Positions 1-32,727 of a stretch of 64,000 nt of DNA are shown here, piece by piece (the first letter of the stretch is position 1; each line of letters starts with the position of its first letter). The stretch is from Euglena gracilis (lineage: Eukaryota). The stretch spans positions 36,317,703-36,381,702 of the forward strand of contig CP154954.1 in the NCBI GenBank assembly GCA_039621445.1. The letters run 5' to 3'. Made by a program: the position numbers and the translations under genes. The notes under the pieces are model-generated. The model made no database searches. It had not been told where the DNA came from and saw nothing but the letters and a program-made list of their open reading frames with translations.

Positions 1-3000
1 CGTCCCCCGGAATGGTCGAATGCACCCATCTAAATGTGCCGATTTCTTGCAACCAACATTCCCGCTGCATGTTTCTCTCACCATTAAACCACGACAATCA
101 TGAAACCAACGGGTCCCCTGACTTTGGAGGCCTCCTGCAACACCTATTCGGTTACTCGGAGTAGTGCCCAATTTGGTCCATTTTTACATGGTAACCTCGG
201 CTGACCTGGTAAATGTCCCCGGAATGGTCGAATGCACCCATCTAAATGTGCTGATATCTTGCAACCAACATTCCCGCTGCATGTTTTTATTACCACTAAA
301 CCACGACAATCATGGAACCAACGGGTCCCCTGACTTTGGAGGCCTCCTGGAACACCCATTCGGTTACTCGGAGTAAGGCCCAATTTGGTCCGTTTTTACA
401 TGGTAACCTGGGCTGACCTGGTAAATGTCCCCCGGAATGGTCGAATGCACCGATGTAAATCTGTTCATTTCTTGCAACCAACAGTCCCGCTGCATGTTTT
501 TCTGACCATTAAACCACGACAATCATGAAACCAACGGGTCCCCTGACTTTGGAGGCCTCCTGGAACACCCATTCGGTTACTCGGAGTAAGGCCCAATTTG
601 GTCCATTTTTACATGGTAACCTGAGCTGAACTGGTAAATGTCCCCCCCGGAATGGTCGAATGCACCCATCTAAATGTGCTGATTTCTTGCGACCAACATT
701 CCCGCTGCATGTTTCTCTTACCATTAAACCACGACAATCATGAAACCAACGGGTCCCTTGACTTTGGAGGCCTCGTGGAACACCCATTCGGTTACTCGGA
801 GTAAGGCCCAATTTGGTCCATTTTTACATGGTAACCTGGGCTGACCTGGTAAATGTCCCCGGAATGGTCGAATGCACCCATCTAAATGTGCTGATTTCTT
901 GCAACCAACATTCCCGCTGCATGTTTCTCTTACCATTAAACCACGACAATCATGAAACCAACGGGTCCCCTGACTTTGGAGGCCTCCTGCAACACCCATT
1001 CGGTTACTCGGAGTAAGGCCCAATTTGGTCCATTTTTACATGGTAACCTGGGCTTACCTGGTAAATGTCCCCCGGAACGGTCGAATGCACCCATCTAAAT
1101 GTGCTGATATATTGCAACCAACATTCCCGCTGCATGTTTTTCTCACTATTAAACCACGACAATCATGAAACAAACGGGTCCCCAGACTTTGGAGGCCTCC
1201 TGGAACACCCATTCGGTTACTCGGAGTAAGGCCCAATTTGGTCCATTTTTACATGGTAACCTGGGCTGACCTGGTAAACGTCCCCCGGAATGGTCGAATG
1301 CACCCATCTAAATGTGCTGATTTCTTGCAACCAACATTCCCGCTGTATGTTTCTCTTACAATTAAACCACGACAATCATGAAACCAACGGGTCCCCTGAC
1401 TTTGGAGGCCTCCTGGACCACCCATTCGATTATTCGGCGTAAGGCCCAATTTGGTCCATTTTTACATGGTAACCTGGGCTGAACTGGTAAATGTCCCCCC
1501 CCGGAATGGTCGAATGCACCCATCTAAATGTGCTGATTTCTTGCAACCAACAATCCCGCTGCATGTTTCTCTTACCATTAAACCACAACAGTCATGAAAC
1601 CAACGGGTCCCCTGACTTTGGAGGCCTCCTGGACCACCCATTCGGTTACTCGGCGTAAGGCCCAGTTTGGTCCATTTTTACATGGTAACCTGAGCTGAAC
1701 TGGTAAATGTCCCCCCCGGAATGGTCGAATGCACCCATCTAAATGTGCTGATTTCTTGCGACCAACATTCCTGCTGCATGTTTCTCTTACCATTAAACCA
1801 CGACAATCATGAAACCAACGGGTCCCCTGACTTTGGAGGCCTCCTGGAACACCCATTCGGTTACTCGGAGTAAGTCCCAATTTGCTCCATTTTTACATGG
1901 TAACCTGGGCTGACCTGGTAAATGTCCCCCGGAATGGTCGAATGCACCCATCAAAATGTGCTCATTTCTCGCAACCAACATTCCCGCTGCATGTTTTTCT
2001 TACCATTAACCCACGACAATCATGAAACTAACGGTTCCCCTTACTTTGGAGGCCTCCTGGAACACCCATTCGGTTACTCGGAGTAAGGCCCAATTTGGTC
2101 CATTTTTACATGGTAACCTGGGCTGACCTGGTAAATGTCCCCCGGAATGGACGAATGCACCCATCTAATTGTGCTGATGTCTTGCAGCCAACATTCCCGC
2201 TGCATGTTTTTCTTACCATTAAACCACGACAATCACGAAACCAACGGGTCCCCTGACTTTGGAGGCCTCCTGGAACACCCATTCGGTTACTCGGAGTAAG
2301 GCCCAATTTGGCCCATTTTTACATGGTAACCTGGGCTGACCTGGTAAACGTCCCCCGGAATGGTCGAATGCACCCATCTAAATGTGCTGATTTCTTGCAA
2401 CCAACATTCCCGCTGTATGTTTCTCTTACAATTAAACCACGACAATCATGAAACCAACGGGTCCCCTGACTTTGGAGGCCTCCTGGACCACCCATTCGAT
2501 TATTCGGCGTAAGGCCCAATTTGGTCCATTTTTACATGGTAACCTGGGCTGAACTGGTAAATGTCCCCCCCCGGAATGGTCGAATGCACCCATCTAAATG
2601 TGCTGATTTCTTGCAACCAACAATCCCGCTGCATGTTTCTCTTACCATTAAACCACAACAGTCATGAAACCAACGGGTCCCCTGACTTTGGAGGCCTCCT
2701 GGACCACCCATTCGGTTACTCGGCGTAAGGCCCAGTTTGGTCCATTTTTACATGGTAACCTGAGCTGAACTGGTAAATGTCCCCCCCGGAATGGTCGAAT
2801 GCACCCATCTAAATGTGCTGATTTCTTGCGACCAACATTCCCGCTGCATGTTTCTCTTACCATTAAACCACGACAATCATGAAACCAACGGGTCCCTTGA
2901 CTTTGGAGGCCTCGTGGAACACCCATTCGGTTACTCGGAGTAAGTCCCAATTTGCTCCATTTTTACATGGTAACCTGGGCTGACCTGGTAAATGTCCCCG

Positions 3001-6000
3001 GAATGGTCGAATGCACCCATCTAAATGTGCTGATATCTTGCAACCAACATTCCCGCTGCATGTTTCTCTTACCATTAAACCACGACAATCATGAAACCAA
3101 CGGGTCCCCTGACTTTGGAGGCCTCCTGCAACACCCATTCGGTTACTCGGAGTAATGCCCAATTTGGTCCATTTTTACATGGTAACCTCGGCTGACCTGG
3201 TAAATGTCCCCGGAATGGTCGAATGCACCCATCTAAATGTGCTGATATCTTGCAACCAACATTCCCGCTGCATGTTTTTCTTACCATTAAACCACGACAA
3301 TCACGAAACCAACGGGTCCCCTGACTTTGGAGGCCTCCTGGAACACCCATTCGGTTACTCGGAGTAAGGCCCAATTTGGCCCATTTTTACATGGTAACCT
3401 GGGCTGACCTGGTAAACGTCCCCCGGAATGGTCGAATGCACCCATCTAAATGTGCTCATTTCTTGCAACCAACATTCCCCCTGCATGTTTTTCTTACCAT
3501 TAAACCACGACAATCATGAAACCAACGGGTCCCCTGACTTTGGAGGCCTCCTGGACCACCCATTCGATTATTCGGCGTAAGGCCCAATTTGGTCCATTTT
3601 TACATGGTAACCTGGGCTGAACTGGTAAATGTCCCCCCCCGGAATGGTCGAATGCACCCATCTAAATGTGCTGATTTCTTGCAACCAACAATCCCGCTGC
3701 ATGTTTCTCTTACCATTAAACCACAACAGTCATGAAACCAACGGGTCCCCTGACTTTGGAGGCCTCCTGGACCACCCATTCGGTTACTCGGCGTAAGGCC
3801 CAGTTTGGTCCATTTTTACATGGTAACCTGAGCTGAACTGGTAAATGTCCCCCCCGGACTGGTCGAATGCACCCATCTAAATGTGCTGATTTCTTGCGAC
3901 CAACATTCCCGCTGCATGTTTCTCTTACCATTAAACCACGACAATCATGAAACCAACGGGTCCCCTGACTTTGGAGGCCTCCTGGAACACCCATTCGGTT
4001 ACTCGGAGTAAGTCCCAATTTGCTCCATTTTTACATGGTAACCTGGGCTGACCTGGTAAATGTCCCCCGGAATGGTCGAATGCACCCATCAAAATGTGCT
4101 CATTTCTCGCAACCAACATTCCCGCTGCATGTTTTTCTTACCATTAACCCACGACAATCATGAAACTAACGGGTCCCCTGACTTTGGAGGCCTCCTGGAA
4201 CACCCATTCGGTTACTCGGAGTAAGGCCCAATTTGGTCCATTTTTACATGGTAACCTGGGCTGACCTGGTAAATGTCCCCCGGAATGGTCGAATGCACCC
4301 ATCTAAATGTGCTGATTTCTTGCAACCAACATTCAAGCTGTATGTTTCTCTTACCATTAAACCACGACAATCATGAAACCAACGGGTCCCCTGACTTTGG
4401 AGGCCTCCTGGAACACCCATTCGGTTACTCGGAGTAAGGCCCAACTTGGTCCATTTTTACATGGTAACCTGGGCTGACCTGGTAAATGTCCCCCGGAATG
4501 GTCGAATGCACCCATCTAAATGTGCTGATGTCTTGCAACCAACATTCCTGCTGCATGTGTTTTTTACCATTAAACCACGACAATCATGAAACCAACGGGT
4601 CCTCTGACTTTGGAGGCCTCCTGGAACACCCATTCGGTTACTCGGAGTAAGGCCCAATTTGGTCCATTTTTACATGGTAACCTGGGCTGACCTGGTAAAT
4701 GTCCCCCGGAATGGTCGAATGCACCCATCTAAATGTGCTGATTTCTTGCAACCAACATTCAAGCTGTATGTTTCTCTTACCATTAAACCACGACAATCAT
4801 GAAACCAACGGGTCCCCTGACTTTGGAGGCCTCCTGGAACACCCATTCGGTTACTCGGAGTAAGGCCCAACTTGGTCCATTTTTACATGGTAACCTGGGC
4901 TGACCTGGTAAATGTCCCCCGGAATGGTCGAATGCACCCATCTAAATGTGCTGATTTCTTGCACCCAACATTCTCGATGCATGGTTCTCTTACCATTAAA
5001 CCACGACAATCATGAAACCAACGGGTCCCCTGACTTTGGAGGCCTCCTGGAACACCCATTCGGTTACTCGGCGTAAGGCCCAATTTGGTCCATTTTTACA
5101 TGGTAACCTGGGCTGACCTGGTAAATGTCCCCCGGAATGGTCGAATGCACCCATCTAAATGTGCTGATTTCTTGCAACCAACAATCCCGCTGCAGGTTTC
5201 TCTTACCATTAAACCACAACAATCATGAAACCAACGGGTCCCCTGACTTTGGAGGCCTCCTGGACCACCCATTCGGTTAATCGGCGTAAGGCCCAGTTTG
5301 GTCCATTTTTACATGGTAACCTGGGCTGACCTGGTAAATGTCCCCCGGAATGGTGGAATGCACCCATCTAAATGTGCTGATTTCTTGCAACCAACATTCA
5401 AGCTGTATGTTTCTCTTACCATTAAACCACAACAGTCATGAAACCAACGGGTCCCCTGACTTTGGAGGCCTCCTGGACCACCCATTCGGTTACTCGGCGT
5501 AAGGCCCAGTTTGGTCCATTTTTACATGGTAACCTGGGCTGAACTGGTAAATGTCCCCCCCGGAATGGTCGAATGCACCCATCTAAATGTGCTGATTTCT
5601 TGCGACCAACATTCCCGCTGCATGTTTCTCTTACCATTAAACCACGACAATCATGAAACCAACGGGTCCCTTGACTTTGGAGGCCTCCTGGAACACCCAT
5701 TCGGTTACTCGGAGTAAGTCCCAATTTGGTCCATTTTTACATGGTAACCTGGGCTGACCTGGTAAATGTCCCCCGGAATGGTCGAATGCACCCATCTAAA
5801 TGTGCTGATATCTTGCAACCAACATTCCCGCTGCATGTTTCTCTTACCATTAAACCACGACAATCATGAAACCAACGGGTCCCCTAACTTTGGAGGCCTC
5901 CTGCAACACCCATTCGGTTACTCGGAGTAATGCCCAATTTGGTCCATTTTTACATGGTAACCTCGGCTGACCTGGTAAATGTCCCCGGAATGGTCGAATG

Positions 6001-9000
6001 CACCCATCTAAATGTGCTGATATCTTGCAACCAACATTCCCGCTGCATGTTTTTCTTACCATTAAACCACGACAATCACGAAACCAACGGGTCCCCTGAC
6101 TTTGGAGGCCTCCTGGAACACCCATTCGGTTACTCGGAGTAAGGCCCAATTTGGCCCATTTTTACATGGTAACCTGGGCTGACCTGGTAAACGTCCCCCG
6201 GAATGGTCGAATGCACCCATCTAAATGTGCTGATTTCTTGCAACCAACATTCCCGCTGTATGTTTCTCTTACAATTAAACCACGACAATCATGAAACCAA
6301 CGGGTCCCCTGACTTTGGAGGCCTCCTGGACCACCCATTCGATTATTCGGCGTAAGGCCCAATTTGGTCCATTTTTACATGGTAACCTGGGCTGTTCTGG
6401 TAAATGTCCCCCCCCGGAATGGTCGAATGCACCCATCTAAATGTGCTGATTTCTTGCAACCAACAATCCCGCTGCATGTTTCTCTTACCATTAAACCACA
6501 ACAATCATGAAACCAACGGGTCCCCTGACTTTGGAGGCCTCCTGGACCACCCATTCGGTTACTCGGCGTAAGGCCCAGTTTGGTCCATTTTTACATGGTA
6601 ACCTGAGCTGAACTGGTAAATGTCCCCCCCGGACTGGTCGAATGCACCCATCTAAATGTGCTGATTTCTTGCGACCAACATTCCCGCTGCATGTTTCTCT
6701 TACCATTAAACCACGACAATCATGAAACCAACGGGTCCCCTGACTTTGGAGGCCTCCTGGAACACCCATTCGGTTACTCGGAGTAAGTCCCAATTTGCTC
6801 CATTTTTACATGGTAACCTGGGCTGACCTGGTAAATGTCCCCCGGAATGGTCGAATGCACCCATCAAAATGTGCTCATTTCTCGCAACCAACATTCCCGC
6901 TGCACGTTTTTCTTACCATTAACCCACGACAATCATGAAACTAACGGTTCCCCTTACTTTGGAGGCCTCCTGGAACACCCATTCGGTTACTCGGAGTAAG
7001 GCCCAATTTGGTCCATTTTTACATGGTAACCTGGGCTGACCTGGTAAATGTCCCCCGGAATGGTCGAATGCACCCATCTAAATGTGCTGATTTCTTGCAA
7101 CCAACATTCAAGCTGTATGTTTCTCTTACCATTAAACCACGACGATCATGAAACCAACGGGTCCCCTGACTTTGGAGGCCTCCTGGAACACCCATTCGGT
7201 TACTCGGAGTAAGGCCCAACTTGGTCCATTTTTACATGGTAACCTGGGCTGATCTGGTAAATGTCCCCCGGAATGGTCGAATACACCCATCTAAATGTGC
7301 TGATGTCTTGCATCCAACATTCCTGCTGCATGTGTTTTTTACCATTAAACCACGACAATCATGAAACCAACGGGTCCTCTGACTTTGGAGGCCTCCTGGA
7401 ACACCCATTCGGTTACTCGGAGTAAGGCCCAATTTGGTCCATTTTACATGGTAACCTGGGCTGACCTGGTAAATGTCCCCCGGAATGGTCGAATGCACCC
7501 ATCTAAATGTGCTGATTTCTTGCAACCAACATTCAAGCTGTATGTTTCTCTTACCATTAAACCACGACGATCATGAAACCAACGGGTCCCCTGACTTTGG
7601 AGGCCTCCTGGAACACCCATTCGGTTACTCGGAGTAAGGCCCAACTTGGTCCATTTTTACATGGTAACCTGGGCTGATCTGGTAAATGTCCCCCGGAATG
7701 GTCGAATACACCCATCTAAATGTGCTGATTTCTTGCACCCAACATTCTCGCTGCATGGTTCTCTTACCATTAAACCACGACAATCATGAAACCAACGGGT
7801 CCCCTGACTTTGGAGGCCTCCTGGAACACCCATTCGGTTACTCGGCGTAAGGCCCAATTTGGTCCATTTTTACATGGTAACCTGGGCTGAACTGGTAAAT
7901 GTCCCCCGGAATGGTCGAATGCACCCATCTAAATGTGCTGATTTCTTGCAACCAACAATCCCGCTGCATGTTTCTCTTACCATTAAACCACAACAATCAT
8001 GAAACCAACGGGTCCCCTGACTTTGGAGGCCTCCTGGACCACCCATTCGGTTACTCGGCGTAAGGCCCAGTTTGGTCCATTTTTACATGGTAACCTGGGC
8101 TGACCTGGTAAATGTCCCCCGGAATGGTCGAATGCACCCATCTAAATGTGCTGATTTCTTGCAACCAACATTCAAGCTGTATGTTTCTCTTACCATTAAA
8201 CCACGACGATCATGAAACCAACGGGTCCCCTGACTTTGGAGGCCTCCTGGAACACCCATTCGGTTACTCGGAGTAAGGCCCAACTTGGTCCATTTTTACA
8301 TGGTAACCTGGGCTGATCTGGTAAATGTCCCCCGGAATGGTCGAATACACCCATCTAAATGTGCTGATTTCTTGCACCCAACATTCTCGCTGCATGGTTC
8401 TCTTACCATTAAACCACGACAATCATGAAACCAACGGGTCCCCTGACTTTGGAGGCCTCCTGGAACACCCATTCGGTTACTCGGCGTAAGGCCCAATTTG
8501 GTCCATTTTTACATGGTAACCTGGGCTGAACTGGTAAATGTCCCCCCCCGGAATGGTCGAATGCACCCATCTAAATGTGCTGATTTCTTGCAACCAACAA
8601 TCCCGCTGCATGTTTCTCTTACCATTAAACCACAACAATCATGAAACCAACGGGTCCCCTGACTTTGGAGGCCTCCTGGACCACCCATTCGGTTACTCGG
8701 CGTAAGGCCCAGTTTGGTCCATTTTTACATGGTAACCTGGGCTGAACTGGTAAATGTCCCCCCCGGAATGGTCGAATGCACCCATCTAAATGTGCTGATT
8801 TCTTGCGACCAACATTCCCCCTGCATGTTTCTCTTACCATTAAACCACGACAATCATGAAACCAACGGGTCCCCTGACTTTGGAGGCCTCCTGGAACACC
8901 CATTCGGTTACTCGGAGTAAGTCCCAATTTGGTCCATTTTTACATGGTAACCTGGGCTGACCTGGTAAATGTCCCCCGGAATGGTCGAATGCACCCATCT

Positions 9001-12000
9001 AAATGTGCTCATTTCTCGCAACCAACATTCCCGCTGCATGTTTTTCTTACCATTAAACCACGACAATCATGAAACCAACGGGTCCCCTGACTTTGGAGGC
9101 CTCCTGGAACACCCATTCGGTTACTCGGAGTAAGGCCCAATTTGGTCCATTTTTACATGGTAACCTGGGCTGACCTGGTAAATGTCCCCCGGAATGGTCG
9201 AATGCACCCATCTAATTGTGCTGATGTCTTGCAACCAACATTCCTGCTGCATGTGTTTCTTACCATTAAACCACGACAATCATGAAACCAACGGGTCCCC
9301 TGACTTTGGAGGCCTCCTGGAACACCCATTCGGTTACTCGGAGTAAGGCCCAATTTGGTCCATTTTTACATGGTAACCTGGGCTGATCTGGTAAATGTCC
9401 CCCGGAATGGTCGAATGCACCCATCTAAATGTGCTGATTTCTTGCAACCAACATTCTCGCTGCATGTTTCTCTTACCATTAAACCACGACAATCATGAAA
9501 CCAACGGGTCCCCTGACTTTGGAGGCCTCCTGGAACACCCATTCGGTTACTCGGCGTAAGGCCCAATTTGGTCCATTTTTACATGGTAACCTGGGCTGAA
9601 CTGGTAAATGTCCCCCCCCGGAATGGTCGAATGCACCCATCTAAATGTGCTCATTTCTTGCAACCAACATTCCCGCTGCATGTTTTTCTTACCATTAAAC
9701 CACGACAATCATGAAACCAACGGGTCCCCTGACTTTGGAGGCCTCCTGGAACACCCATTCGGTTACTCGGAGTAAGGCCCAATTTGGTCCATTTTTACAT
9801 GGTAACCTGGGCTGACCTGGTAAATGTCCCCCGGAATGGTCGAATGCACCCATCTAAATGTGCTGATTTCTTGCACCCAACATTCTCGCTGCATGGTTCT
9901 CTTACCATTAAACCACGACAATCATGAAACCAACGGGTCCCCTGACTTTGGAGGCCTCCTGGAACACCCATTCGGTTACTCGGCGTAAGGCCCAATTTGG
10001 TCCATTTTTACATGGTAACCTGGGCTGACCTGGTAAATGTCCCCCGGAATGGTCGAATGCACCCATCTAAATGTGCTCATTTCTTGCAACCAACAATCCC
10101 GCTGCATGTTTCTCTTACCATTAAACCACAACAATCATGAAACCATCGGGTCCCCTGACTTTGGAGGCCTCCTGGACCACCCATTCGGTTACTCGGAGTA
10201 AGGCCCAATTTGGTCCATTTTTACATGGTAACCTGGGCTGACCTGGTAAATGTCCCCCGGAATGGTCGAATGCACCCATCTAAATGTGCTGATTTCTTGC
10301 AACCAACATTCCCGCTGCATGTTTTTCTTACCATTAACCCACGACAATCATGAAACCAACGGGTCCCCTGACTTTGGAGGCCTCCTGGAACACCCATTCG
10401 GTTACTCGGAGTAAGGCCCAATTTGGTCCATTTTTACATGGTAACCTGGGCTGACCTGGTAAATGTCCCCCGGAATGGTCGAATGCACCCATCTAATTGT
10501 GCTGATGTCTTGCAACCAACATTCCTGCTGCATGTGTTTCTTACCATTAAACCACGACAATCATGAAACCAACGGGTCCTCTGACTTTGGAGGCCTCCTG
10601 GAACACCCATTCGGTTACTCGGAGTAAGGCCCAATTTGGTCCATTTTTACATGGTAACCTGGGCTGACCTGGTAAATGTCCCCCGGAATGGTCGAATGCA
10701 CCCATCAAAATGTGCTCATTTCTCGCAACCAACATTCCCGCTGCATTTTTTTCTTACCATTAACCCACGACAATCGTGAAACCAACGGGTCCCCTGACTT
10801 TGGAGGCCTCCTGGAACACCCATTCGGTTACTCGGAGTAAGGCCCAATTTGGTCCATTTTTACATGGTAACCTGGGCTGACCTGGTAAATGTCCCCCGGA
10901 ATGGACGAATGCACCCATCTAATTGTGCTGATTTCTTGCAACCAACATTCCTGCTGCATGTGTTTCTTACCATTAAACCACGACAATCATGAAACCAACG
11001 GGTCCCCTGACTTTGGAAGCCTCCTGGAACACCCAGTCGGGTGCTCGGAGTAAGGCCCAATTTGGTCCATTTTTACATCGGAACCTTGGCTGACGTGGTA
11101 AATGTCCCCCGGAATGGTCGAATGCACCCATCTAAATGTGCTGATTTTTTGCAACCAACATTCCCGCTGCATGTTTTTCTTAACATTAAACCACGACAAT
11201 CATGAAACCAACGGGTCCCCTGACTTTGGTGGCCTCCTGGAACACCCATTCGGTTACTCAGAGTAAGGCCCAATTTGGTCCATTTTTTACATGGTAACCT
11301 GGGCTGACCTGGTAAATGTCCCCCGGAATGGTCGAATGCATCCATCTAAATGTGCTCATTTCTTGCAACCAACATTACCGCCGCATGATTTTCTTACCAT
11401 TAAAACCACGACAATCATGAAACCAACAGTTCCCCTGACTTTGGAGGCCTCCTGGAACACCCATTCGGTTACTCGGAGTAAGGCCCAATTTGGTCCATTT
11501 TACATGGTAACCCGAGCTGACCTGGTAAATGTCCCCCGGAGTGGTCGAATGCACCCATCTAAATGTGCTGAATTCTTGCACCCAACATACCCGCTGCATG
11601 TTTTTATTACCATTAAACCACGACAATCATGAAACCAACGGGTCCCCTGACTTTGGAGGCCTCCTGGAACACCCATTCGGTTACTCGGAGTAAGGCCCAA
11701 TTTGGTCCATTTTTACATGGTAACCTGGGCTGACCTGGTAAATGTCCCCCCCCGGAATGGTCGAATGCACCCATCAAAATGTGCTCATTTCCCGCAACCA
11801 ACGTTCCCGCTGCATGTTTTTGTTACCATTAACCCACGACAATCATGAAACCAACGGGTCCCCTGACTTTGGAGGCCTCCTGGAACTCCCATTCGGTTAC
11901 TCGGAGTGAGGCCCAATTTGGTCCATTTTTTTTTTTGGTAAACCTGGGCTGACCTGGTGGAATGGTCGAATGCACCCATCAAAATGTGCTCATTTCCCGC

Positions 12001-12610
12001 AACCAACGTTCCCGCTGCATGTTTTTCTTACCATTAACCCACGACAATCATGAAACCAACGGGTCCCCTGACTTTGGAGGCCTCCTGGAACACCCATTCG
12101 GTTACTCGGAGTAAGGCCCAATTTGGTCCATTTTTACATGGTAACCTGGGCTGACCTGGTAAATGTCCCCCGGAATGGTCGAATGCACCCATCAAAATGT
12201 GCTCATTTCCCGCAACCAACATTCCCGCTGCATGTTTTTCTTACCATTAACCCACGACAATCATGAAACCAACGGGTCCCCTGACTTTGGAGGCCTCCTG
12301 GAACACCCATTCGGTTACTCGGAGTAAGGCCCAATTTGGTCCATTTTTACATGGTAACCTGGGCTGACCTGGTAAATGTCCCCCGGAATGGTCGACTGCA
12401 CCCATCTAAATGTGCTCATTTATTGTAACCAACATTCCCGCTGCATGTTTTTCTTACCATTAAACCACGACAATCATGAAACCAACGGGTCCCCTGACTT
12501 TGGAGGCCTCCTGGAACACCCATTCGGTTACTCGGAGTAAGGCCCAATTTGGTCCATTTATACATGGTAACCTGGGCTGACCTGGTAAAGGTCCCCCGGA
12601 ATGGTCAAAT
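1..12610 (+). repeat. Tandem satellite array, ~213-bp monomer (~59 copies), runs off the left edge of the window
   Basis: The monomer CATGGTAACCTGGGCTGACCTGGTAAATGTCCCCCGGAATGGTCGAATGCACC...GGAGGCCTCC...TTACTCGGAGTAAGGCCCAATTTGGTCCATTTTTA recurs every 212-216 bp. The ORF track shows the same peptide recurring every ~213 bp. Confidence 0.98.
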
Positions 12611-12945
12611 TGTGTGCGGCAGACGGGAGATCCTACGGAGGTTGGTAGCCGGCGCGTAGTACCAAGCCGAGTATCGCTCGAGTAGCTTATTCGGTAAGGT
12701 GCTGGGCTCACACGCGGGAGGTCGTGGGTTCGAGACCCAGGTCCCGCCGTGTGAGTCCTGATCGATCCCGTACGGGCAGAGGGCATACCGCGGGGATCGA
12801 TCGGCGCGTGAGGCTGCGCACGTGGACGAACGTTGATCGGTCGGATTACCACGTGCGTGGCCCCTCGCCAGCGGACGAGCCACGGCAAGTAGTATGAGCT
12901 GCCCCGTGGCCGTCCAACGGCGGGTGGTGACAACCAACGTAAACA
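12611..12945 (+). repeat. 5' LTR
   Basis: TGTGTGCGGC...CGTAAACA; no differences from the 3' LTR found by eye. Confidence 0.93.
12676..12747 (+). ncRNA. tRNA-derived (Val-CAC-like) Pol III promoter module inside the 5' LTR
   Basis: 72 nt with tRNA spacing: A-box TAGCTTATTCGG, D stem GCTT/AGGT, anticodon loop CTCACAC, variable region AGGTC, T arm GTGGG-TTCGAGA-CCCAG (B-box GGTTCGAGACC). Acceptor and anticodon stems are only partly paired. Confidence 0.75.
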
Positions 12946-12958
12946 TGGTAGCAGAGGA
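12946..12958 (+). promoter_or_regulatory. Primer-binding site complementary to the 3' end of initiator tRNA-Met
   Basis: TGGTAGCAGAGGA abuts the LTR end. It is the reverse complement of ...TCCTCTGCTACCA, the 3' end of animal-type tRNAi-Met as recalled. Confidence 0.8.
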
Positions 12959-13292
12959 ACCCGTCTAATGCCACACGAACCGGGAAATCAGAGCCTGACC
13001 CCACGGCGCCCGGAAGGCGGAGGCGGACGCGCCGAGTCTAGGGCGACTGAAACTCCTACACCGTTCCAAAGTCTCAAGCCGATGCAAAGGGGGACGCTCC
13101 AAGGCGGCAGAGCCCGTGGAAGTCGACAACACGTAAACTGCCGGCAATAGCAAACCCGAGCTGCAGGGGTCGGCAGCCTGGTGACGCAGTACTCGTGAGA
13201 AGCACTCAGCCAACTAGGGCCGTGTGAGGCATAACCCGAGCTGCAGGGGCCACGGCCATAGTGACGCAGTGGGCTAGTGTAGTAAGGCTCTT

Positions 13293-13302
13293 GGGAGGGG
13301 AG
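13293..13302 (+). promoter_or_regulatory. Polypurine tract
   Basis: GGGAGGGGAG immediately 5' of the TG that starts the 3' LTR. Confidence 0.85.
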
Positions 13303-13637
13303 TGTGTGCGGCAGACGGGAGATCCTACGGAGGTTGGTAGCCGGCGCGTAGTACCAAGCCGAGTATCGCTCGAGTAGCTTATTCGGTAAGGTGCTGGGCT
13401 CACACGCGGGAGGTCGTGGGTTCGAGACCCAGGTCCCGCCGTGTGAGTCCTGATCGATCCCGTACGGGCAGAGGGCATACCGCGGGGATCGATCGGCGCG
13501 TGAGGCTGCGCACGTGGACGAACGTTGATCGGTCGGATTACCACGTGCGTGGCCCCTCGCCAGCGGACGAGCCACGGCAAGTAGTATGAGCTGCCCCGTG
13601 GCCGTCCAACGGCGGGTGGTGACAACCAACGTAAACA
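13303..13637 (+). repeat. 3' LTR
   Basis: Copy of 12611-12945 at offset 692. Confidence 0.93.
13368..13439 (+). ncRNA. tRNA-derived module inside the 3' LTR
   Basis: Same sequence as 12676-12747. Confidence 0.75.
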
Positions 13638-13640
13638 CAA

Positions 13641-16600
13641 ACCCAGGTTACCATGTAAAAATGGACCAAATTGGGCCTTACTCCGAGTTACCGAAGGGGT
13701 GTTCTAGGAGGCCTCCAAAGTCAGGGGACCCGTTGGTTTCATGACTGTCGTGGTTTAATGTTAAGAAAAACATGCACCGGGAATGCTGGTTGCAAGTAAT
13801 GAGCACGTTTAGATGGGTGCATTCGACCATTCCGGGGGACATTTTACCAGGTCAGCCCAGGTTACCATGTAAAAATGGACCAAATTGGGCCTTACTCGGA
13901 GTAACCGAATGGGTGTTCCAGGAGGCCTCCAAAGTCAGGGGACCCGTTGGTTTCATGATTGTCGTGGTTTAATGGTAAGAAAAACATGCAGCGGGAATCT
14001 TGGTTGCAGAAAATGAGCACATTTAGATGGGTGCATTCGACCATTCCGGGGGACATTTACCAGGTCAACCCAGGGTACCATGTAAAAATGGACCAAATTT
14101 GGGCCTTACTCCGAGTAACCGAATGGGTGTTCCAGGAGGCCTCCAAAGTCAGGGAAACCCGTTGGTTTCATGATTGTCGTGGTTTAACGGTAAGAAAAAC
14201 ATGCAGCTGGAATGTTGGTTGCAAGAAATGAGCACATTTAGAAGGGTGTATTCGACCATTCCGGGGGACATTTTACCAGGTCAGCCCAGGTTACCATGTA
14301 AACATGCACCAAATTGGGCCTTACTCCGAGTAACCGAGTGGGTGTTCCAGGAGGCCTCCAAAGTCAGGGAAACCCGTTGGTTTCATGATTGTCGTGGTTT
14401 AACGGTAAGAAAAACATGCAGTGGGAGTGTTGGTTGCAAGAAATGAGCACATTTAGATGGGTACATTCGAACATTCCGGGGGACATTTGACCAGGTCAGC
14501 CCAGGTTACCATGTACACACGGACCAAAATGCGCCTTACTCCGAGTAACCGAATGGGTGTTCCAGGAGGCCTCCAAAGTCAGGGGACCCGTTGGTTTCAT
14601 GATTCTCGTGGTTTATTGGTAAGAAAAACATGCAGCGACAACGTTGGTTGCAAGAAATGAGCACATTTAGATGGGTGCACTCCAGCATTCCGGGGGACAT
14701 TCACCAGGTCAGCCCGGGTTACCATGTAAAAATGGACCAAATTGGGCGATACTCCGAGTAACTGATTGGGGTTTCCAGGAGGCCTCCAAAGTCAGGGGAC
14801 TCGTTGGTTTCATGATTGTCGTGGTTTAATGGTAAGAAAAACATGCAGCGGGAATGTTGGTTGCAAGAAATGAGCACATTTAGAAGGGTGCATTCGACCA
14901 TTCCGGGGGACATTTACCAGGTCAGCCCAGGTTACCATGTCAACATGGACCAAATTGGGCCTTACTCCGAGTAACTGAATGGGTTTTACAGGGGGCCTGC
15001 AAAGTCAGGGGACCCGTTGGTTTCATGATAGTCGTGGTTTAATGGTAAGAAAAACATGCAGCGGGAACGTTGGTTGCAAGAAATGAGCACATTTAGATGG
15101 GTGCATTCGACCATTCCGGGGGACATTTACCAGGTCAGCCCAGGGTACCATGTAAAAATGGACCAGATTGGGCCTTGCTCCGAGTAACAGAATGGGTGTC
15201 CCAGGAGGCCTCCAAAGTCAGGGGACCCGTTGGTTTCATGGTTGTCGTGGTTTAGTGGTAAGAAAAACATGCAGCGGGAATGTTGGTTGCGAGAAATGAG
15301 CACATATAGATGGGTGCATTCGACCATTCCGGTGGACATTTACCAGGTCAACCCAGGGTACCATGTAAAAATGAACCAAAATTGGGCCTTACTCCGAGTA
15401 ACCGAATGGGTGTCCCAGGAGGCCTCCAAAGTCAGGGGTCCCGTTGTTTTCATGATTGTCCTGGTTGATTGGTAAGAAACACATCCAGCAGGAATGTTGG
15501 TTGCAAGAAATGAGCACATTTAGATGGGTGCACTCGAACATTCCGGGGGACATTTTACCAGTTCAGCCCAGGTTACCATGTAAACACGGACCAAAATGGG
15601 CCTTACTCCGAGTAACCGAATGGATGTTCCAGGGAGCCTCCAAAGTCAGGGGACCCGTTGGTTTCATGATTGTCGTGGTTTTAATGGTAAGAAAAACGTG
15701 CAGCGGGAATGTTGGTTGCAGAAAATGAGCACTATTAGATGGGTGCATTCGACCGTTCCGGGGGACATTTACCAGGTCAACCCAGGGTACCATGTAAAAA
15801 TGGACCAAATTTGGGCCTTACTCCGAGTAACCGAATGGGTGTTCCAGGAGGCCTCCAAAGTCAGGAGTCCCGTTGGTTTCATGATTGTCCTGGTTTAATG
15901 GTAATAAACACATGCAGCGGGAATGTTGGTTGCAAGAAATGAGCACATTTAGATGGGTGCATTCGAACACTCCGGGGACATTTCACCAGGTCAGCCCAGG
16001 TTACCATGTACACACGGAGCAAAATGGGCCTTACTCCGAGTAACCGAATGGGTGTTCCAGGAGGCCTCCAAAGTCAGGGAAACCCGTTGGTTTCATGATT
16101 GTCGTGGTTTAACGGTAAGAAAAACATGCAGCGGTAATGTTGGTTGCAAGAAATGAGCACATTTAGAAGGGTGTATTCGACCATTCCGGGGGACATTTTA
16201 CCAGGTCAGCCCAGGTTACCATGTAAACATGCACCAAATTGGGCCTTACTCCGAGTAACCGAATGGGTGTTCCAGGAGGCCTCCAAAGTCAGGGAAACCC
16301 GTTGGTTTCATGATTCTCGTGGTTTATTGGTAAGAAAAACATGCAGCGACAACGTTGGTTGCAAGAAATGAGCACATTTAGATGGGTGCACTCCAGCATT
16401 CCGGGGGACATTCACCAGGTCAGCCCGGGTTACCATGTAAAAATGGACCAAATTGGGCGATACTCCGAGTAACTGATTGGGTTTTCCAGGAGGCCTCCAA
16501 AGTCAGGGGACTCGTTGGTTTCATGATTGTCGTGGTTTAATGGTAAGAAAAACATGCAGCGGGAATGTTGGTTGCAAGAAATGAGCACATTTAGAAGGGT

Positions 16601-19600
16601 GCATTCGACCATTCCGGGGGACATTTACCAGGTCAGCCCAGGTTACCATGTCAACATGGACCAAATTGGGCCTTACTCCGAGTAACCGAATGGGTTTTCC
16701 AGGGGGCCTCCAAAGTCAGGGGACCCGTTGGTTTCATGATTTTCGTGGTTTAATGGTAAGAAAAACATGCAGCGGGAACGTTGGTTGCAAGAAATGAGCA
16801 CATTTAGATGGGTGCATTCGACCATTCCGGGGGACATTTACCAGGTCAGCCCAGGTTACCATGTAAAAACGGACCAAATTGGGCCTTACTCCGAGTAACC
16901 GAATGGGTGTTCCAGGAGGCCTCCAAAGTCAGGGGACCCGTTGGTTTCATGATAGTCGTGGTTTACTGGTCAGAAAAACATGCAGCGGGAACGTTGGTTG
17001 CAAGAAATGAGCACGTTTAGATGGGTGCATTCGACCATTCTGGGGGACATTTTACCAGGTCAGGCCAGGTTACCATGTAAACATGCACCAAATTGGGCCT
17101 TACTCCGAGTAACCGAGTGGGTGTTCCAGGAGGCCTCCAAAGTCAGGGAAACCCGTTGGTTTCATGATTGTCGTGGTTTAACGGTAAGAAAAACATGCAG
17201 TGGGAGTGTTGGTTGCAAGAAATGAGCAGATTTAGATGGGTTCATTCGAACATTCCGGGGGACATTTGACCAGGTCAGCCCAGGTTACCATGTACACACG
17301 GACCAAAATGCGCCTTACTCCGAGTAACCGAATGGGTGTTCCAGGAGGCCTCCAAAGTCAGGGGACCCGTTGGTTTCATGATTCTCGTGGTTTATTGGTA
17401 AGAAAAACATGCAGCGACAACGTTGGTTGCAAGAAATGAGCACATTTAGATGGGTGCACTCCAGCATTCCGGGGGACATTCACCAGGTCAGCCCGGGTTA
17501 CCATGTAAAAATGGACCAAATTGGGCGATACTCCGAGTAACTGATTGGGTTTTCCAGGAGGCCTCCAAAGTCAGGGGACTCGTTGGTTTCATGATTGTCG
17601 TGGTTTAATGGTAAGAAAAACATGCAGCGGGAATGTTGGTTGCAAGAAATGAGCACATTTAGAAGGGTGCATTCGACCATTCCGGGGGACATTTACCAGG
17701 TCAGCCCAGGTTACCATGTCAACATGGACCAAATTGGGCCTTACTCCGAGTAACCGAATGGGTGTTCCAGGGGGCCTCCAAAGTCAGGGGACCCGTTGGT
17801 TTCATGATTTTCGTGGTTTAATGGTAAGAAAAACATGCAGCGGGAACGTTGGTTGCAAGAAATGAGCACATTTAGATGGGTGCATTCGACCATTCCGGGG
17901 GACATTTACCAGGTCAGCCCAGGTTACCATGTAAAAACGGACCAAATTGGGCCTTACTCCGAGTAACCGAATGGGTGTTCCAGGAGGGCACCAAAGTCAG
18001 GGGACCCGTTGGTTTCATGATAGTCGTGGTTTACTGGTCAGAAAAACATGCAGCGGGAACGTTGGTTGCAAGAAATGAGCACGTTTAGATGGGTGCATTC
18101 GACCATTCTGGGGGACATTTACCAGGTCAGCAAAGGGTACCAAGTAAAAATGGACCAGATTGGGCCTTGCTCCGAGTAACCGAATGGGTGTCCCAGGAGG
18201 CCTCCAAAGTCAGGGTTCCCGTTGGTTTCATGGTTGTCGTGGTTTAGTGGCAAGAAAAACATGCAGCGGGAATGTTGGTTGCAGAAAATGAGCACATTTA
18301 GATGGGTGCATTCGACCATTCCGGGGGACATTTACCAGGTCAGCCCAGGTTACCATGTAAAAATGGACCAAATTGGGCCTTACCCCGAGTAACCGAATGG
18401 GTGTTCCAGGAGGCCTCCAAAGTCAGGGGACCCGTTGGTTTAATGATTGTCGTGGTTTAATGGTAAGAAAAAAATGCAGCGGGAATGTTGGTTGCAGAAA
18501 ATGAGCACATTTAGATGGGTGCATTCGACCATTCCGGGGGACATTCACCAGGTCAGCCCGGGTTACCATGTAAAAATGGACCAAATTGGGCGATACTCCG
18601 AGTAACTGATTGGGTTTTCCAGGAGGCCTCCAAAGTCAGGGGACTCGTTGGTTTCATGATTGTCGTGGTTTAATGGTAAGAAAAACATGCAGCGGGAATG
18701 TTGGTTGCAAGAAATGAGCACATTTAGATGGGTGCATTCGACCATTCCGGGGGACATTTACCAGGTCAGCCCAGGTTACCATGTCAACATGGACCAAATT
18801 GGGCCTTACTCCGAGTAACCGAATGGGTGTTCCAGGGGGCCTCCAAAGTCAGGGGACCCGTTGGTTTCATGATTTTCGTGGTTTAATGGTAAGAAAAACA
18901 TGCAGCGGGAACGTTGGTTGCAAGAAATGAGCACATTTAGATGGGTGCATTCGACCATTCCGGGGGACATTTACCAGGTCAGCCCAGGTTACCATGTAAA
19001 AACGGACCAAATTGGGCCTTACTCCGAGTAACCGAATGGGTGTTCCAGGAGGGCACCAAAGTCAGGGGACCCGTTGGTTTCATGATAGTCGTGGTTTACT
19101 GGTCAGAAAAACATGCAGCGGGAACGTTGGTTGCAAGAAATGAGCACGTTTAGATGGGTGCATTCGACCATTCTGGGGGACATTTACCAGGTCAGCAAAG
19201 GGTACCAAGTAAAAATGGACCAGATTGGGCCTTGCTCCGAGTAACCGAATGGGTGTCCCAGGAGGCCTCCAAAGTCAGGGGTCCCGTTGGTTTCATGGTT
19301 GTCGTGGTTTAGTGGTAAGAAAAACATGCAGCGGAAATGTTGGTTGCAGAAAATGAGCACATTTAGATGGGTGCATTCGACCATTCCGGGGGACATTTAC
19401 CAGGTCAGCCCAGGTTACCATGTAAAAATGGACCAAATTGGGCCTTACCCCGAGTAACCGAATGGGTGTTCCAGGAGGCCTCCAAAGTCAGGGGACCCGT
19501 TGGTTTAATGATTGTCGTGGTTTAATGGTAAGAAAAAAATGCAGCGGGAATGTTGGTTGCAGAAAATGAGCACATTTAGATGGGTGCATTCGACCATTCC

Positions 19601-22600
19601 GGTGGACATTTACCAGGTCAAACCAGGGTACCATGTAAAAATGAACCAAAATTGGGCCTTACTCCGAGTAACCGAATGGGTGTCCCAGGAGGCCTCCAAA
19701 GTCAGGGGTCCCGTTGTTTTCATGATTGTCCTGGTTGATTGGTAAGAAACACATGAAGCAGGAATGTTGGTTGCAAGAAATGAGCACATTTAGATTGGTG
19801 CACTCGAACATTCCGGGGGACATTTTACCCGTTCAGCCCAGGTTACCATGTAAACACGGACCAAAATGGGCCTTACTCCGAGTAATCGAATGGTTGTTCC
19901 AGGGGGCCTCCAAAGTCAGGGGACCCGTTGGTTTCATGATTGCCGTGGTTTTAATGGTAAGAAAAACATGCAGCGGGAACGTTGGTTGCAAGAAATCAGG
20001 CAGATTAAGATGGGTGCATTCGACCATTCCGGGGGACATTTACCAGGTCAGCCCAGGTTACCATGTAAAAATGGACCAAATTGGGCCTTACTCCGAGTAA
20101 CCGAATGGGTTTTCCAGGGGGCCTCCAAAGTCAGGGGACCCGTTGGTTTCATGATTTTCGTGTTTTTAATGGTAAGAAAAACATGCAGCGGGAACGTTGG
20201 TTGCAAGAAATCAGGCACATTTAGATGGTTGCATTCGACCATTCCGGGGGACATTTACCAGGTCAGCCCAGGTTACCATGTAAAAACGGACCAAATTGGG
20301 CCTTACTCCGAGTAACCGAATAGGTGTTCCAGGAGGCCTCTAAAGTCAGGGGACCCGTTGGTTTCATGATTGTCGTGGTTTAATGGTAAGAAAAACATGC
20401 AGCGGGAACGTTGGTTGCAAGAAATCAGGCACATTTAGATGGTTGCATTCGACCATTCAGGGGGACATTTACCAGGTCAGCCCAGGTTATCATGTAAACA
20501 TGGACCAAATTGGGCCTTACTCCGAGTAACCGAATGGGTTTTCCAGGAGGCCTCCAAAGTCAGGGGACCCGTTGTTTTCATGATTGTCGTGGTTTAATGG
20601 TAAGAAAAACATGCAGCGGGAATATTGGTTGCAAGAAATGTGCACGTTTAGATGGGTGCATTCGACCATTCCGGGGGACATTTACCTGTCAGCCCAAGTT
20701 ACCAGGTAAAAATGGACCAAATTGGGCCTTACCCCGAGTAACCGAATGGGTGTTCCAGGAGGCCTCCAAAGTCAGGGGACCCGTTGGTTTCATGATTGTC
20801 GTGGTTTAATGGTAAGAAAAACATGCAGCGGGAATGTTGGTTGAAAGAAATCAGCACATTTAGATGGGTGCATTTGACCATTCCGAGGGACATTTACCAG
20901 GTCAGCCCAGGTTACCACGTAAAAATGGACCAAATTGGGCCTTACTCCGAGTAACCAAATAGGTGTTCTAGGAGGCCTCTAAAGTCAGGGGACCCGTTGG
21001 TTTAATGATTGTCGTGGTTTAATGGTAAGAAAAACATGCAGCGGGAACGTTGATTGCAATAAATTAGCACGTTTAGATGGGTGCACTCGACCATTCCGGG
21101 GGACATTTACAAGGTCAAACCCAGGTTACCATGCAAAAATGGACCAAATTTGGCCTTACTCCGAGTAACCGAATGGGTGGCCCAGGAGGCCTCCAAAGTC
21201 AGGGGACCCGTTGATTTCATGATTGTCGTGGTTTAATTGTAAGAATAACATGCAGCGGAAACGTTGGTTGCAAGAAATCAGGCACATTTAGATGGTTGCA
21301 TTCGACCATTTCGGGGGACATTTACCAGGTCAGCCCAGGTTACCACGTAAAAATGGACCAAATTGGGCCTTACCCCGAGTAACTGAATGGGTGTTCCAGG
21401 AGGCCTCCAAAGTCAGGGGATCCGTTGGTTTCACGATTGTGGTGGTTTAATGGTACGAAAAACATGTAGCGGGAATGTTGGTTGCAAGAAATGAGCACAT
21501 TTAGATGGGTGCATTCGACCATTCCCGGGGACATTTACCAGGTCAGCCCAGGTTACCATGTAAAAATGGACCAAATTGGGCCTTACTCCGAGTAACCGAA
21601 TAGGTGTTCCAGGAGGCCTCTAAAGTCAGGGGACCCGTTGGTTTAATGATTGTCGTGGTTTAATGGTAAGAAAAACATGCAGCGGGAATGTTGGTTGCAA
21701 GAAATAAGCACATTTAGATGGGTGCATTCGACCTTTCCGGGGGACATTTAGCAGGTCAGCCCAAGTTACCATGTAAAAATGGACCAAACTGTGCCTTACT
21801 CTAAGTAACCAAATGGGTGGCCCAGGAGGCCTCCAAAGTCAGAGAACCCGTTGGTTTCATGATTGTCGTGGTTTAATGGTAAGAAAAACATGCAGCGGGA
21901 ATGTTGGTTGCAATAAATTAGCACGTTTAGATGGGTGCACTCGACCATTCCGGGGGACATTTACCAGGTCAGACCAGGTTACCGTGCAAAAATGGACCAA
22001 ATTGGGCCTTACTCCGAGTAACCGAATGGGTTTTCCAGGAGGCCTCCAAAGTCAAGGGACCCGTTGGTTTCATGATTATCGTGGTTTAATGGTAAGAAAA
22101 ACATGCGGCGGGAATGTTGGTTGCAAGAAATGAGCACATTTAGATGGGTGCATTCGACCATTCCGGGGGACATTGACCAGGTCAGCCCAGGTTACCATGT
22201 AAAAATGGACCGAATTGGGCCTTACTCCGAGTAACCGAATAGGTGTTCCAGGAGGCCTCTAAAGTCAGGGGACCCGTTGGTTTCATGATTATCGTGGTTT
22301 AATGGTAAGAAAAACATGCGGCGGGAATGTTGGTTGCAAGAAATGAGCACATTTAGATGGGTGCATTCGACCATTCCGGGGGACATTAACCAGGTCAGCC
22401 CAAGTTACCATGTAAAAATGGACCAAATTGTGCCTTACTCCGAGTAACCGAATGGGTGTTCCAGGAGGCCTCCAAAGTCAGGGGACCCGTTGGTTTCATG
22501 ATTGTCGTGGTTTAATGGTAAGAAAAACATGCAGCGGGAACGTTGGTTGCAAGAAATCAGGCACATTTACGTGGTTGCATTCGACCATTCCGGGGGACAT

Positions 22601-24516
22601 TTACCAGGTCAGCCCAGGTTACCACGTAAAAATGGACCAAATTGGGCCTTACCCCGAGTAACTGAATGGGTGTTCCAGGAGGCCTCCAAAGTCAGGGGAC
22701 CCGTTGTTTTCATGATTGTCGTGGTTTAATGGTACGAAAAACATGTAGCGGGAATGTTGGTTGCAAGAAATGTGCACATTTAGATGGGTGCACTCGACCA
22801 TTCCCGGGGACATTTACCAGGTCAACGGGGTTACCATGTAAAAATGGACCAAATTGGGCCTTACCCCGAGTAACCGAATAGGTGTTCCAGGAGGCCTCTA
22901 AAGTCAGGGGACCCGTTGGTTTCATGATTGTCGTGGTTTAATGGTAAGAAAAACATGCAGCGGGAATGTTGGTTGCGAGGAATGAGCACATTTAGATGGG
23001 TGCATTCGACCATTCCTGGGGACATTTAGCAGGTCAACCCAAGTTACCATGTAAAAATGGACCAAATTGTGCCTTAATCTAAGTAACCGAATGGGTGGCC
23101 CAGGAGGGCACCAAAGTCAGGGAACCCGTTGGTTTCATGATTGTCGTGGTTTAATGGTAAGAAAAACATGCAGCGGGAATGTTGGTTGCAATAAATTAGC
23201 ACGTTTAGATGGGTGCACTCTACCATTCCGGGGGACATTTACCAGGTCAGACCAGGTTACCGTGCAAAAATGGACCAAATTGGGCCTTACTCCGAGTAAC
23301 CGAATGGGTTTTCCAGGAGGCCTCCAAAGTCAGGGGACCCGTTGGTTTCATGATTATCGTGGTTTAATGGTAAGAAAAACATGCGGCGGGAATGTTGGTT
23401 GCAAGAAATGAGCACATTTAGATGGGTGCATTCGACCATTCCCGGGGACATTTACCAGGTCAGCCCAGGTTACCATGTAAAAATGGACCAAATTGGGCCT
23501 TACTCCGAGTAACCGAATAGGTGTTCCAGGAGGCCTCTAAAGTCAGGGGACCCGTTGGTTTATTGATTGTCGTGGTTTAATGGTAAGAAAAACATGCAGC
23601 GGGAATGTTGGTTGCAAGAAATGAGCACATTTAGATGGGTGCATTCGACCATTCCGGGGGACATTTACCAGGTCAGCCCAGGTTACCATGTAAAAATGGA
23701 CCAAATTGTGCCTTACTCTAAGTAACCGAATGGGTGTCCCAGGGGGCCTCCAAAGTCAGGGGTCCCGTTGGTTTCATGATTGTCGTGGTTTAATGGAAAG
23801 AAAAACATGCATCCGGAAGGTTGGTTGCAAGAAATGAGCACATTTAGATGGGTGCATTCGACCATTCCGTGGGACACTTACCAGGTCAGCCCAGGTTACC
23901 GTGTAAAAATGGACCAAATTGGGCCTTACTCCGAGCAACTGAATGGGTGTTCCAGGAGGCCTCCAAGGTCAGATGACTCGTTGGTTTCATGATTGTCGTG
24001 GTTTAATGTTAAGAAAAATATGCAGCGGGAAGGTTGGTTGCAAGAGATGAGCACATTTAGATGGGTGCATTCGACCATTCCGGGGGACATTTACCAGGTC
24101 AGCCCAGGTTACCATGTAAAAATGGACCAAATTGGGCCTTACTCCGAGTAACCGAATGGGTGTTCCAGGAGGCCTCCAAAGTCAGGGGACCCGTTGGTTT
24201 CATGATTGTCGTGGTTTAATGGTAAGAAAAACATGCAGCGGGAATTCTTGGTTGCAAGAAATGAGCAGATTTAGATGGGTGCATTCGACCATTCCAGGGG
24301 ACACTTACCAGGTCAGCCCAGGTTACCATGTAAAAATGGACCAAATTTGGCCTTACTTCGAGTAACCGAATGGGTGTTCCAGGAGGCCTCCAAAGTCAGG
24401 GGACCCGTTGTTTTCATGATTGTCGTGGTTTAATGGGACGAAAAACATGCAGCCGGAAGGTTCGTTGCAAGAAATGAGCAGATTTAGATGGGTTCATTAG
24501 ACCATTCCGGGGGACA
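13641..24516 (-). repeat. Same ~213-bp satellite in inverted orientation (~51 copies), more diverged
   Basis: Reverse-complement monomer (CCCAGGTTACCATGTAAAAATGGACCAAATTGGGCCTTACTCCGAG...). The satellite pseudo-ORF peptide switches from the - to the + strand here. Confidence 0.97.
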
Positions 24517-31965: not shown

Positions 31966-32575
31966 GCGGGCACCGTCCAGGGAGGGCGACCCTCCCCCCG
32001 AGGAGGCCTCTGGTCCCAGCCCCGGTCCGGTGGTGGCAGCGCCTCGGTTGTCCCCCCCCCAGGCATTTGTCGGGCACGGCCCGGGGGGGGGGGGGGGGCG
32101 GGGGGGGCTGTCCACTGCCGTGCCGGGGAACCCCTTCCTCCCTCCCTGGCTCCGGGCCAGGCTGCTGTCCGCCCTGCCGGCCCCGCCCCAGTGGGCGTCC
32201 GCCAGGGCCGGGCTTCCCCCCCCCAACCGTGCGGCCCAAGCCTTGTCCCACTGGTGTGCCACCGGCAGCCTAAACGAGCTCGCGGGGGCGGGGCCGTCCA
32301 CATGACAGGGGGGATCCACCCCCCCCCCCCCGCCCCGGGCCCGGCGTGCCCTCGCCTCCGCCGCCCGCAGCGCTCCTGCCGATGCCGGACTGGCTGCAGC
32401 CCCGGCCCACCGCCGCCGCCGCCACCGCCACGTCCTCCACTGCGGCCGGAGCAGGGGCCCCCCGTGCTGCCCCCACCCAGCCCACAGGCAGTGGGGGGCC
32501 CCAGGCTTTCCCGGACCCTGGTCACCTCGCACGCACACACACCCACACACCCACACCCACACACACCCACACACA

Positions 32576-32648
<73 letters not shown>

Positions 32649-32695
32649 CACACACACAACACACACCCACACACACACACACACACACACACAAC

Positions 32696-32727
<32 letters not shown>

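Follow-up and report, generated by a model that had tools for sequence, protein, structure and literature searches.

Within the window, by which we mean the whole 64-kb stretch of DNA analysed here, two oppositely oriented arrays of a 213-bp satellite are separated by a 1027-bp unit (12611–13637) lying between two direct terminal repeats (Table 1). The repeats agree at all 335 of their positions. Together with the primer-binding site (PBS), the polypurine tract (PPT) and the non-coding internal region, they give the unit everything expected of a TRIM-sized, non-autonomous LTR retrotransposon. The strict definition of TRIMs sets a limit of 1 kb or less, as quoted in PMC13570524, and the element stands at the upper edge of that limit.

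Position 6 of the PBS is G, and land-plant initiator-Met (iMet) primer sites have T at this position, which speaks weakly against a land-plant host. The motif TGGTAGCAGAGGA corresponds to the first 13 nt of a PBS made complementary to human initiator tRNA-Met, in the portion printed in PMC1797187. Of the ten stop-to-stop ORFs (60 aa or longer) that share sequence with the element, none has a Pfam match at E≤0.01, and the longest, at 219 aa, lacks any Met. The initial annotation had described two indistinguishable 335-bp TG...CA LTRs, a PBS, a PPT and an absence of coding capacity, and each of these observations was borne out, that of the PBS over the stretch for which the comparison sequence is printed. 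As the LTRs are identical and CpG o/e is 1.11 in the element against 0.62–0.66 in its surroundings, the copy can be regarded as young. A second copy was not found elsewhere within the 64-kb window.

Table 1. Features at and around the element, in window coordinates.
Feature	Position	Strand	Remarks
213-bp satellite array, one orientation	2–12610	+	TRF: 59.1 copies, 94% matches
Left flanking pentamer CAAAT	12606–12610	+	4/5 match to right pentamer
5' LTR, TG..CA	12611–12945	+	335 bp; identical to 13303–13637; RNA fold z = −5.7
tRNA-like block, 5' LTR (anticodon loop CUCACAC)	12676–12748	+	RF00005 15.8 bits; 15/21 cloverleaf pairs standard
A-box-like TAGCTTATTCGG	12683–12694	+	Pattern match; fits Helenus TRGCY..YGG (PMC10886601 section 3.5)
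B-box-like GGTTCGAGACC	12727–12737	+	Pattern match; GGTTC conserved in Helenus (PMC10886601)
Internal region	12946–13302	+	357 bp, non-coding; 38-nt imperfect direct repeat 13153–13190 / 13233–13270
Primer-binding site TGGTAGCAGAGGA	12946–12958	+	Adjoins 5' LTR end; 13-nt identity to the printed part of an iMet PBS
Polypurine tract GGGAGGGGAG	13293–13302	+	Adjoins 3' LTR; joint 13302→12611 in 4/4 runs compared
3' LTR	13303–13637	+	335 bp; own tRNA-like block at 13368–13440
Right flanking pentamer CAAAC	13638–13642	+	Intact monomer with AGGTCAAACCCAGG at 21116
Same 213-bp satellite, inverted	13642–24516	−	TRF: 50.9 copies, 91% matches

The remainder of the window (24517–64000) features long dinucleotide runs, among them (AT)54, (AG)56 and (CA)100, on a background of about 53% GC and a CpG o/e of about 0.6. 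ORFs of 120 aa or more number 136 between 24.5 and 64 kb. Of these, 133 (all but three on the minus strand at 25.2–25.9 kb) were searched against Pfam, and no domain exceeded its threshold; the sub-threshold matches were to TFIIA (19.3 bits vs 36.2), CCDC34 (20.5 vs 35) and MINT_RAM7 (31.4 vs 108). The same was true of the 138 ORFs searched among the 276 of 60–119 aa, which gave one sub-threshold match, to DUF1664 (23.5 vs 34.6). Several repeats are present in this region. One stretch of 63% GC is directly duplicated (31964–32958 and 33624–34464; period about 1.66 kb), with identities of 97% over 594 nt and 92% over 277 nt and a (CA)~100 expansion in the first copy that is missing from the second. 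It was considered as a second LTR element and rejected for want of TG..CA ends, a PBS or a PPT, and has the look of a segment duplicated in tandem. A 21-bp minisatellite resembling GTGGATGTGCGTCACCGTCCG forms arrays at 59392–59821, 61041–61579 and 63281–63661; the first two are inverted relative to each other and about 1.3 kb apart, and the arrays may be subterminal repeats of a DNA transposon. Two dispersed copies (75–87%) of an unclassified repeat, at 36515–36798 and 53860–54134, are separated by 17.3 kb.

A tRNA-derived block in each LTR

Positions 66–138 of each LTR are aligned by the tRNA model RF00005 from end to end (model positions 1–71 of 71), at 12676–12748 and again at 13368–13440. 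At 15.8 bits the match is sub-threshold, the gathering score being 29. The corresponding E-values are 6.2 for 1.5 kb searched with 4227 families and 0.5 for 121 nt searched with the same families; division by the number of families gives roughly 1e-4 to 1e-3 for a search with the tRNA model only. U8, A14, G18G19, U33 and the T-loop GGTTCGA..CC are all retained in the alignment. The A-box motif reads TAGCT..CGG, and the combined pattern TAGCNNANNNGG-N28-42-GGTTCGANNCC matches the two LTRs and nothing else in the 64 kb, with 0 matches expected from 100 shuffles.

The stems have fared less well than the boxes. Standard pairs are found at 15 of 21 cloverleaf positions (acceptor 4/7, D 4/4, anticodon 3/5, T 4/5), a count reached or exceeded with a probability of 0.007 in letter-order shuffles of the 73-mer. 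The cloverleaf amounts to −4.6 kcal/mol against −33.2 for the minimum free energy (MFE) fold of the same 73 nt, from which we conclude that the stems are broken. An extended hairpin of −39 kcal/mol spans 12703–12760 (and 13395–13452) and carries the T-arm at its tip, with the anticodon side CTCACACGCGGGA paired to TCCCGCCGTGTGAG just downstream. When the whole LTR is folded, the anticodon side thus leaves the cloverleaf and pairs with the downstream CCGCCGTGTGAG within the −39 kcal/mol hairpin.

ARAGORN reported no tRNA with default settings. With relaxed settings it returned only a 'tRNA-Ser' at 12699–12780, which was discounted since it lies in a different register. Given a sub-threshold RF00005 match, a decayed cloverleaf and no ARAGORN prediction in register, the block is tRNA-derived yet no working tRNA gene; the same observations, with the poor acceptor and anticodon stems, rule out a functional tRNA-Val gene in particular. 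Val(CAC) is a plausible isotype, judging by the CUCACAC loop and by a mammalian tRNA fragment, printed in two papers, to which 18 of 23 positions are identical on a count by eye. The agreement with that fragment, whose parent we take to be tRNA-Val, includes a 10-nt exact match plus AGGTC.

The initial annotation was thus right about intact A and B boxes at tRNA spacing and about broken acceptor and anticodon stems. The covariance-model signal that it anticipated is present at full length in both LTRs, albeit under threshold. Its assignment to tRNA-Val(CAC) stands as far as the loop and the identities to the printed fragment are concerned, and is to be softened to a plausible one with respect to isotype.

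Family size and variation among copies

The stretch was found in 20 public runs from 16 studies, covering three organisms and a leaf-litter RNA library, and the one-off local duplication that the initial annotation had listed among the outcomes refuting its reading is therefore not the case. Four runs were compared over 12500–13330 (831 nt), the second LTR being omitted so that the stretch contained no long repeat. In one DNA run (X1), 18,536 contigs fell on these 831 nt, satellite flank included, at 85–100% identity and in identity classes of 3210, 7377, 7151 and 798 contigs. Summed word depth, which is no copy number, ranged from 0.2 to 0.94 million for the element and from 3.8 to 12.4 million for the satellite flank. 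The internal region was about as deep as the LTR, so that the short form is the common one, and the joint between PPT and LTR was seen in each of the four runs. With so many diverged copies in public runs, among them each of the four compared, this is an abundant family; no second insertion site was recovered together with its flanks. Some contigs carry about ten other letters in place of 12808–12938, which points to the existence of subfamilies with shorter LTRs.

The copy at hand is not typical of its family. Its LTRs have T at 12854 and 13546, where essentially all contigs of the four runs read G, and it also departs from the majority at 12761, 12869, 12942 and 13201. On the basis of these minority positions, we place it in a minor subfamily. 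In X1, G makes up 248,094 of 248,261 depth units at 12854, and the T of this copy accounts for about 166 units. Were those units to represent this one copy, the family would comprise thousands of copies, a figure to be taken as a rough guide only.

Exact-pattern scans gave 0 matches with two LTR patterns in metagenome contigs, and 0 matches in genome contigs and in viral contigs alike, whether with one LTR pattern or with the commonest satellite 24-mer. None of six strings derived from the window was found in a literature look-up.

Variation is unevenly distributed along the LTR. At least 12 LTR positions carry a variant at 10% or more in a DNA run and, among the variants listed, none of these falls in the 72-nt tRNA-like block; were variants evenly spread, the chance of finding 0 of 12 listed sites in the block would be about 0.055. 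The bins covering 12668–12807 are deeper than those covering 12808–12891, by about 2x in X1 and 4–5x in a further run, X12. A single RNA-library contig diverged by 5% has all 25 of its LTR differences in 12761–12878; this same contig has 0 differences in 12611–12760 and 1 in 12879–13122. We read this as a hypervariable LTR middle rather than as proof of selection on the boxes, for low variation extends to neighbouring parts of the LTR and conservation is thus not specific to the boxes. The expectation of the initial annotation that the boxes be better conserved than the rest of the LTR is borne out in part: no listed variant falls in the block, and low variation reaches beyond the boxes.

The satellite strand switch

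The element is located exactly at the only strand switch of the 213-bp satellite. The left satellite arm is the more homogeneous (94% vs 91% matches). As seen from the element, both flanks read GGTCAAAY, and the flanking pentamers CAAAT and CAAAC, identical at four of five positions, lie in opposite orientations of the satellite. A fold-back palindrome or fresh inverted duplication was examined and rejected, there being no mirrored register (all are at about 92%) and no diagonal in a 14 x 14 monomer matrix. The simplest explanation linking these observations is that the copy may be a chimera of two oppositely oriented insertions, recombination between which inverted part of the array. Alternatively, the element may have inserted into an older microhomology junction, one substitution following thereafter; a misjoin at the strand switch is less likely.

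A more far-reaching scenario may be built on this one. If the host lies outside the fungi, animals and plants, for instance among the euglenids, as the initial annotation suspected, the family could represent a separate origin of 'TRIMp3' elements in a further eukaryotic supergroup, numbering on the order of thousands of copies and remodelling satellite arrays. The present copy would then be a chimera of two opposite insertions at GGTCAAAY sites, by which part of a possibly centromeric 213-bp array was inverted. We offer this chain of propositions as speculation and would be surprised to see it hold in full.

Transcription, competing readings and known systems

Our preferred interpretation, which we consider probable, is that 12611–13637 is a young non-autonomous LTR retrotransposon (TRIM) of the Helenus or 'TRIMp3' type, one copy from an abundant and diversified family. 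The PBS, the PPT and the identical LTRs suggest an ordinary LTR-retrotransposon cycle, and the absence of coding capacity suggests that the proteins come from another element. The RNA would run from the 5' LTR into the 3' LTR, and would be packaged and reverse-transcribed in trans by the proteins of an autonomous LTR element. The primers for synthesis would be tRNA-Met(i), at the PBS, and the PPT, and integration would produce a 5-bp duplication. Throughout, the tRNA-derived block would be retained as an internal Pol III promoter.

It is this last proposition that invites most caution. The exact boxes, preserved despite decayed stems, speak in favour of a Pol III role, and we entertain, at slightly worse than even chances, that the block is kept for it; the argument is the one put forward for Helenus, where it is likewise unvalidated (PMC10886601 section 4.1). 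A Pol III start near 12676 would leave about 65 nt as U3. Runs of four or more T are absent from the 1027 bp of the element, the next T4 being at 13842 in the flank, so that Pol III could traverse the whole 1 kb. At a T content of 16% only about 0.6 such runs would be expected by arithmetic, and their absence is consequently weak evidence. As the 3' LTR has no Pol III terminator, the 3' end of the RNA and the formation of the R repeat are left unexplained. The depth of the element relative to the satellite was about 0.01–0.06 in the RNA and 'RNA?' runs X17 and X19 and about 0.03–0.09 in the DNA run X1. These ratios are similar, and contigs cannot show RNA starts; we thus see no sign of specific transcription.

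Three competing readings deserve consideration. The element may be an ordinary TRIM transcribed by Pol II, with the tRNA-like block a passenger of no present promoter role: a relic of a tRNA-derived SINE or a tRNA pseudogene which landed in the LTR and was copied to both. The decay of the cloverleaf to 15 of 21 pairs and an MFE fold of a different structure would be expected of a passenger, as would an LTR with no Pol III terminator, an RNA of about 960 nt, which is long for Pol III, and low variation common to neighbouring LTR parts rather than confined to the boxes. A passenger does not, however, readily account for two boxes of exact consensus at tRNA spacing in a block whose stems have decayed, nor for the fact that, in two DNA runs, no part of the LTR is deeper or, among the variants listed, less variable than the block and its surroundings. 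Neither a TATA-like motif nor AATAAA was seen by eye in the LTR. On balance we think Pol II transcription of this kind unlikely, if far from fanciful. That the tRNA likeness arose by chance in a GC-rich, hairpin-rich LTR seems to us very improbable. The score is well short of the gathering score, the per-family E rises to about 0.06 when scaled by arithmetic to both strands of the 64-kb window, and miRNA-like models score similarly on the same hairpin; chance would nonetheless have to supply a full-length alignment with the hallmark tRNA nucleotides and T-loop in place, a box pattern with no expected matches, the pairing excess over shuffles and the exact match plus AGGTC to the mammalian tRNA fragment in its printed extent.

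A similarly slim chance attaches to the third reading, by which a misjoin or fold-back artefact of assembly, at a high-copy 1-kb repeat in satellite, has produced a copy and flanks that are not as drawn. It would explain why the element coincides with a strand switch that occurs just once in 24.5 kb of satellite and why the flanking pentamers differ, and among the contig pieces listed from the runs, the longest of 21,438, none bridges 12610/12611. Against it, every register between the arms is at about 92% and none is mirrored, the monomer matrix shows no diagonal, and the satellite of both arms is unremarkable as far as the LTR ends, its monomer variants recurring at other places in the arrays; other runs, moreover, confirm the element as such. 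The preferred reading of a young Helenus-type copy is not free of difficulties either. The tRNA score under the Rfam cut-off, the silence of ARAGORN at that register and the flanking pentamers matching at only four of five positions count against it, and no autonomous partner element was found.

Should the preferred reading hold, the family would add a very abundant and recently active example to a class defined in 2024, the miniature LTR elements whose Pol III promoter is of tRNA type, and one in which a Val(CAC)-like block occurs with an iMet primer site and, probably, a 5-bp duplication, a combination not described before. Families such as this inflate tRNA-gene predictions and scatter TFIIIC and Pol III-type sites through the genome. 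Lacking any T-run terminator, the element is well suited to asking whether Pol III can make the genomic RNA of LTR elements, and what would then define R. By its position at the satellite strand switch it illustrates, in a concrete case, a small retroelement that marks, and perhaps caused, the inversion of an array.

Several known systems combine some of these attributes. Retrozymes are likewise non-autonomous LTR elements with a structured small-RNA motif in their LTRs; membership was rejected, as no hammerhead match was obtained at E≤10 in 12400–13900. The tRNA-derived SINEs (SINE2) share a decayed tRNA head, A and B boxes and the lack of a downstream T-run terminator. They differ from the element in having no LTRs, PBS or PPT and in being mobilised by LINEs. 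Cassandra, the 5S-rRNA-bearing plant TRIMs (Kalendar 2008, as cited in PMC10886601), resembles the element, so far as this second-hand account extends, as a TRIM whose two LTRs each contain a small-RNA module of Pol III type. According to the same account, a conserved Pol III terminator in the 5S module of Cassandra sets an 18-bp R; the module here is tRNA-like and has no T-run terminator, and thus no stop of the Cassandra type in the 3' LTR. The Ajax elements, nemertean TRIMs with 5S promoters, have the same architecture and the same proposed 'TRIMp3' logic, and differ in their 5S promoter fragment and tRNA-Leu PBS (PMC10886601). As 5S rRNA was not among the 8 Rfam matches at E≤10 in 12400–13900, the LTR holds no 5S-derived sequence at that threshold, and membership of either Cassandra or Ajax was rejected.

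The closest resemblance is to Helenus, the TRIMs with tRNA-like LTRs described in 2024 by Kojima from rust and agaric fungi, six animal phyla and Selaginella (PMC10886601). The initial annotation had named such TRIMs from fungi, animals and plants, which that paper confirms; its claim to novelty was overstated, since Helenus is already in print and the legend of Figure 2c there aligns fish Helenus LTRs with human tRNA-Val-CAC. Besides Kojima's own we found no later paper on 'TRIMp3', and a 2026 sugar-beet paper only cites Helenus. Published Helenus elements measure 311–1263 bp, with a longest LTR of 323 bp, conserve TRGCY..YGG and GGTTC in what are mostly not functional tRNAs, and reach 5575 LTRs per genome, LTR-11_DR being an example of very high copy number (PMC10886601). 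Their target-site duplications are of 5 bp in fungi and plants and of 4 bp in animals, fish families use His, Leu or Lys primers, and Kojima proposes SINE2 as the probable donor of the tRNA block (PMC10886601).

The element departs from these descriptions in an LTR 12 bp over the longest reported, and in pairing a Val(CAC)-like block with a PBS for the iMet 3' end and a probable duplication of 5 bp, which is not among the combinations described; unlike the fish families it appears to be primed by iMet, and unlike the animal families it probably duplicates 5 bp rather than 4 bp. It agrees with them in its two LTRs, PBS and PPT, in lacking an ORF, in a tRNA-like block per LTR that has TRGCY..YGG and GGTTC and is not a functional tRNA, in a length within the published range and in very high copy numbers. 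Since every defining feature that could be tested is present, and judging by published descriptions rather than by consensus sequences, the element is best classified as one of the Helenus type.
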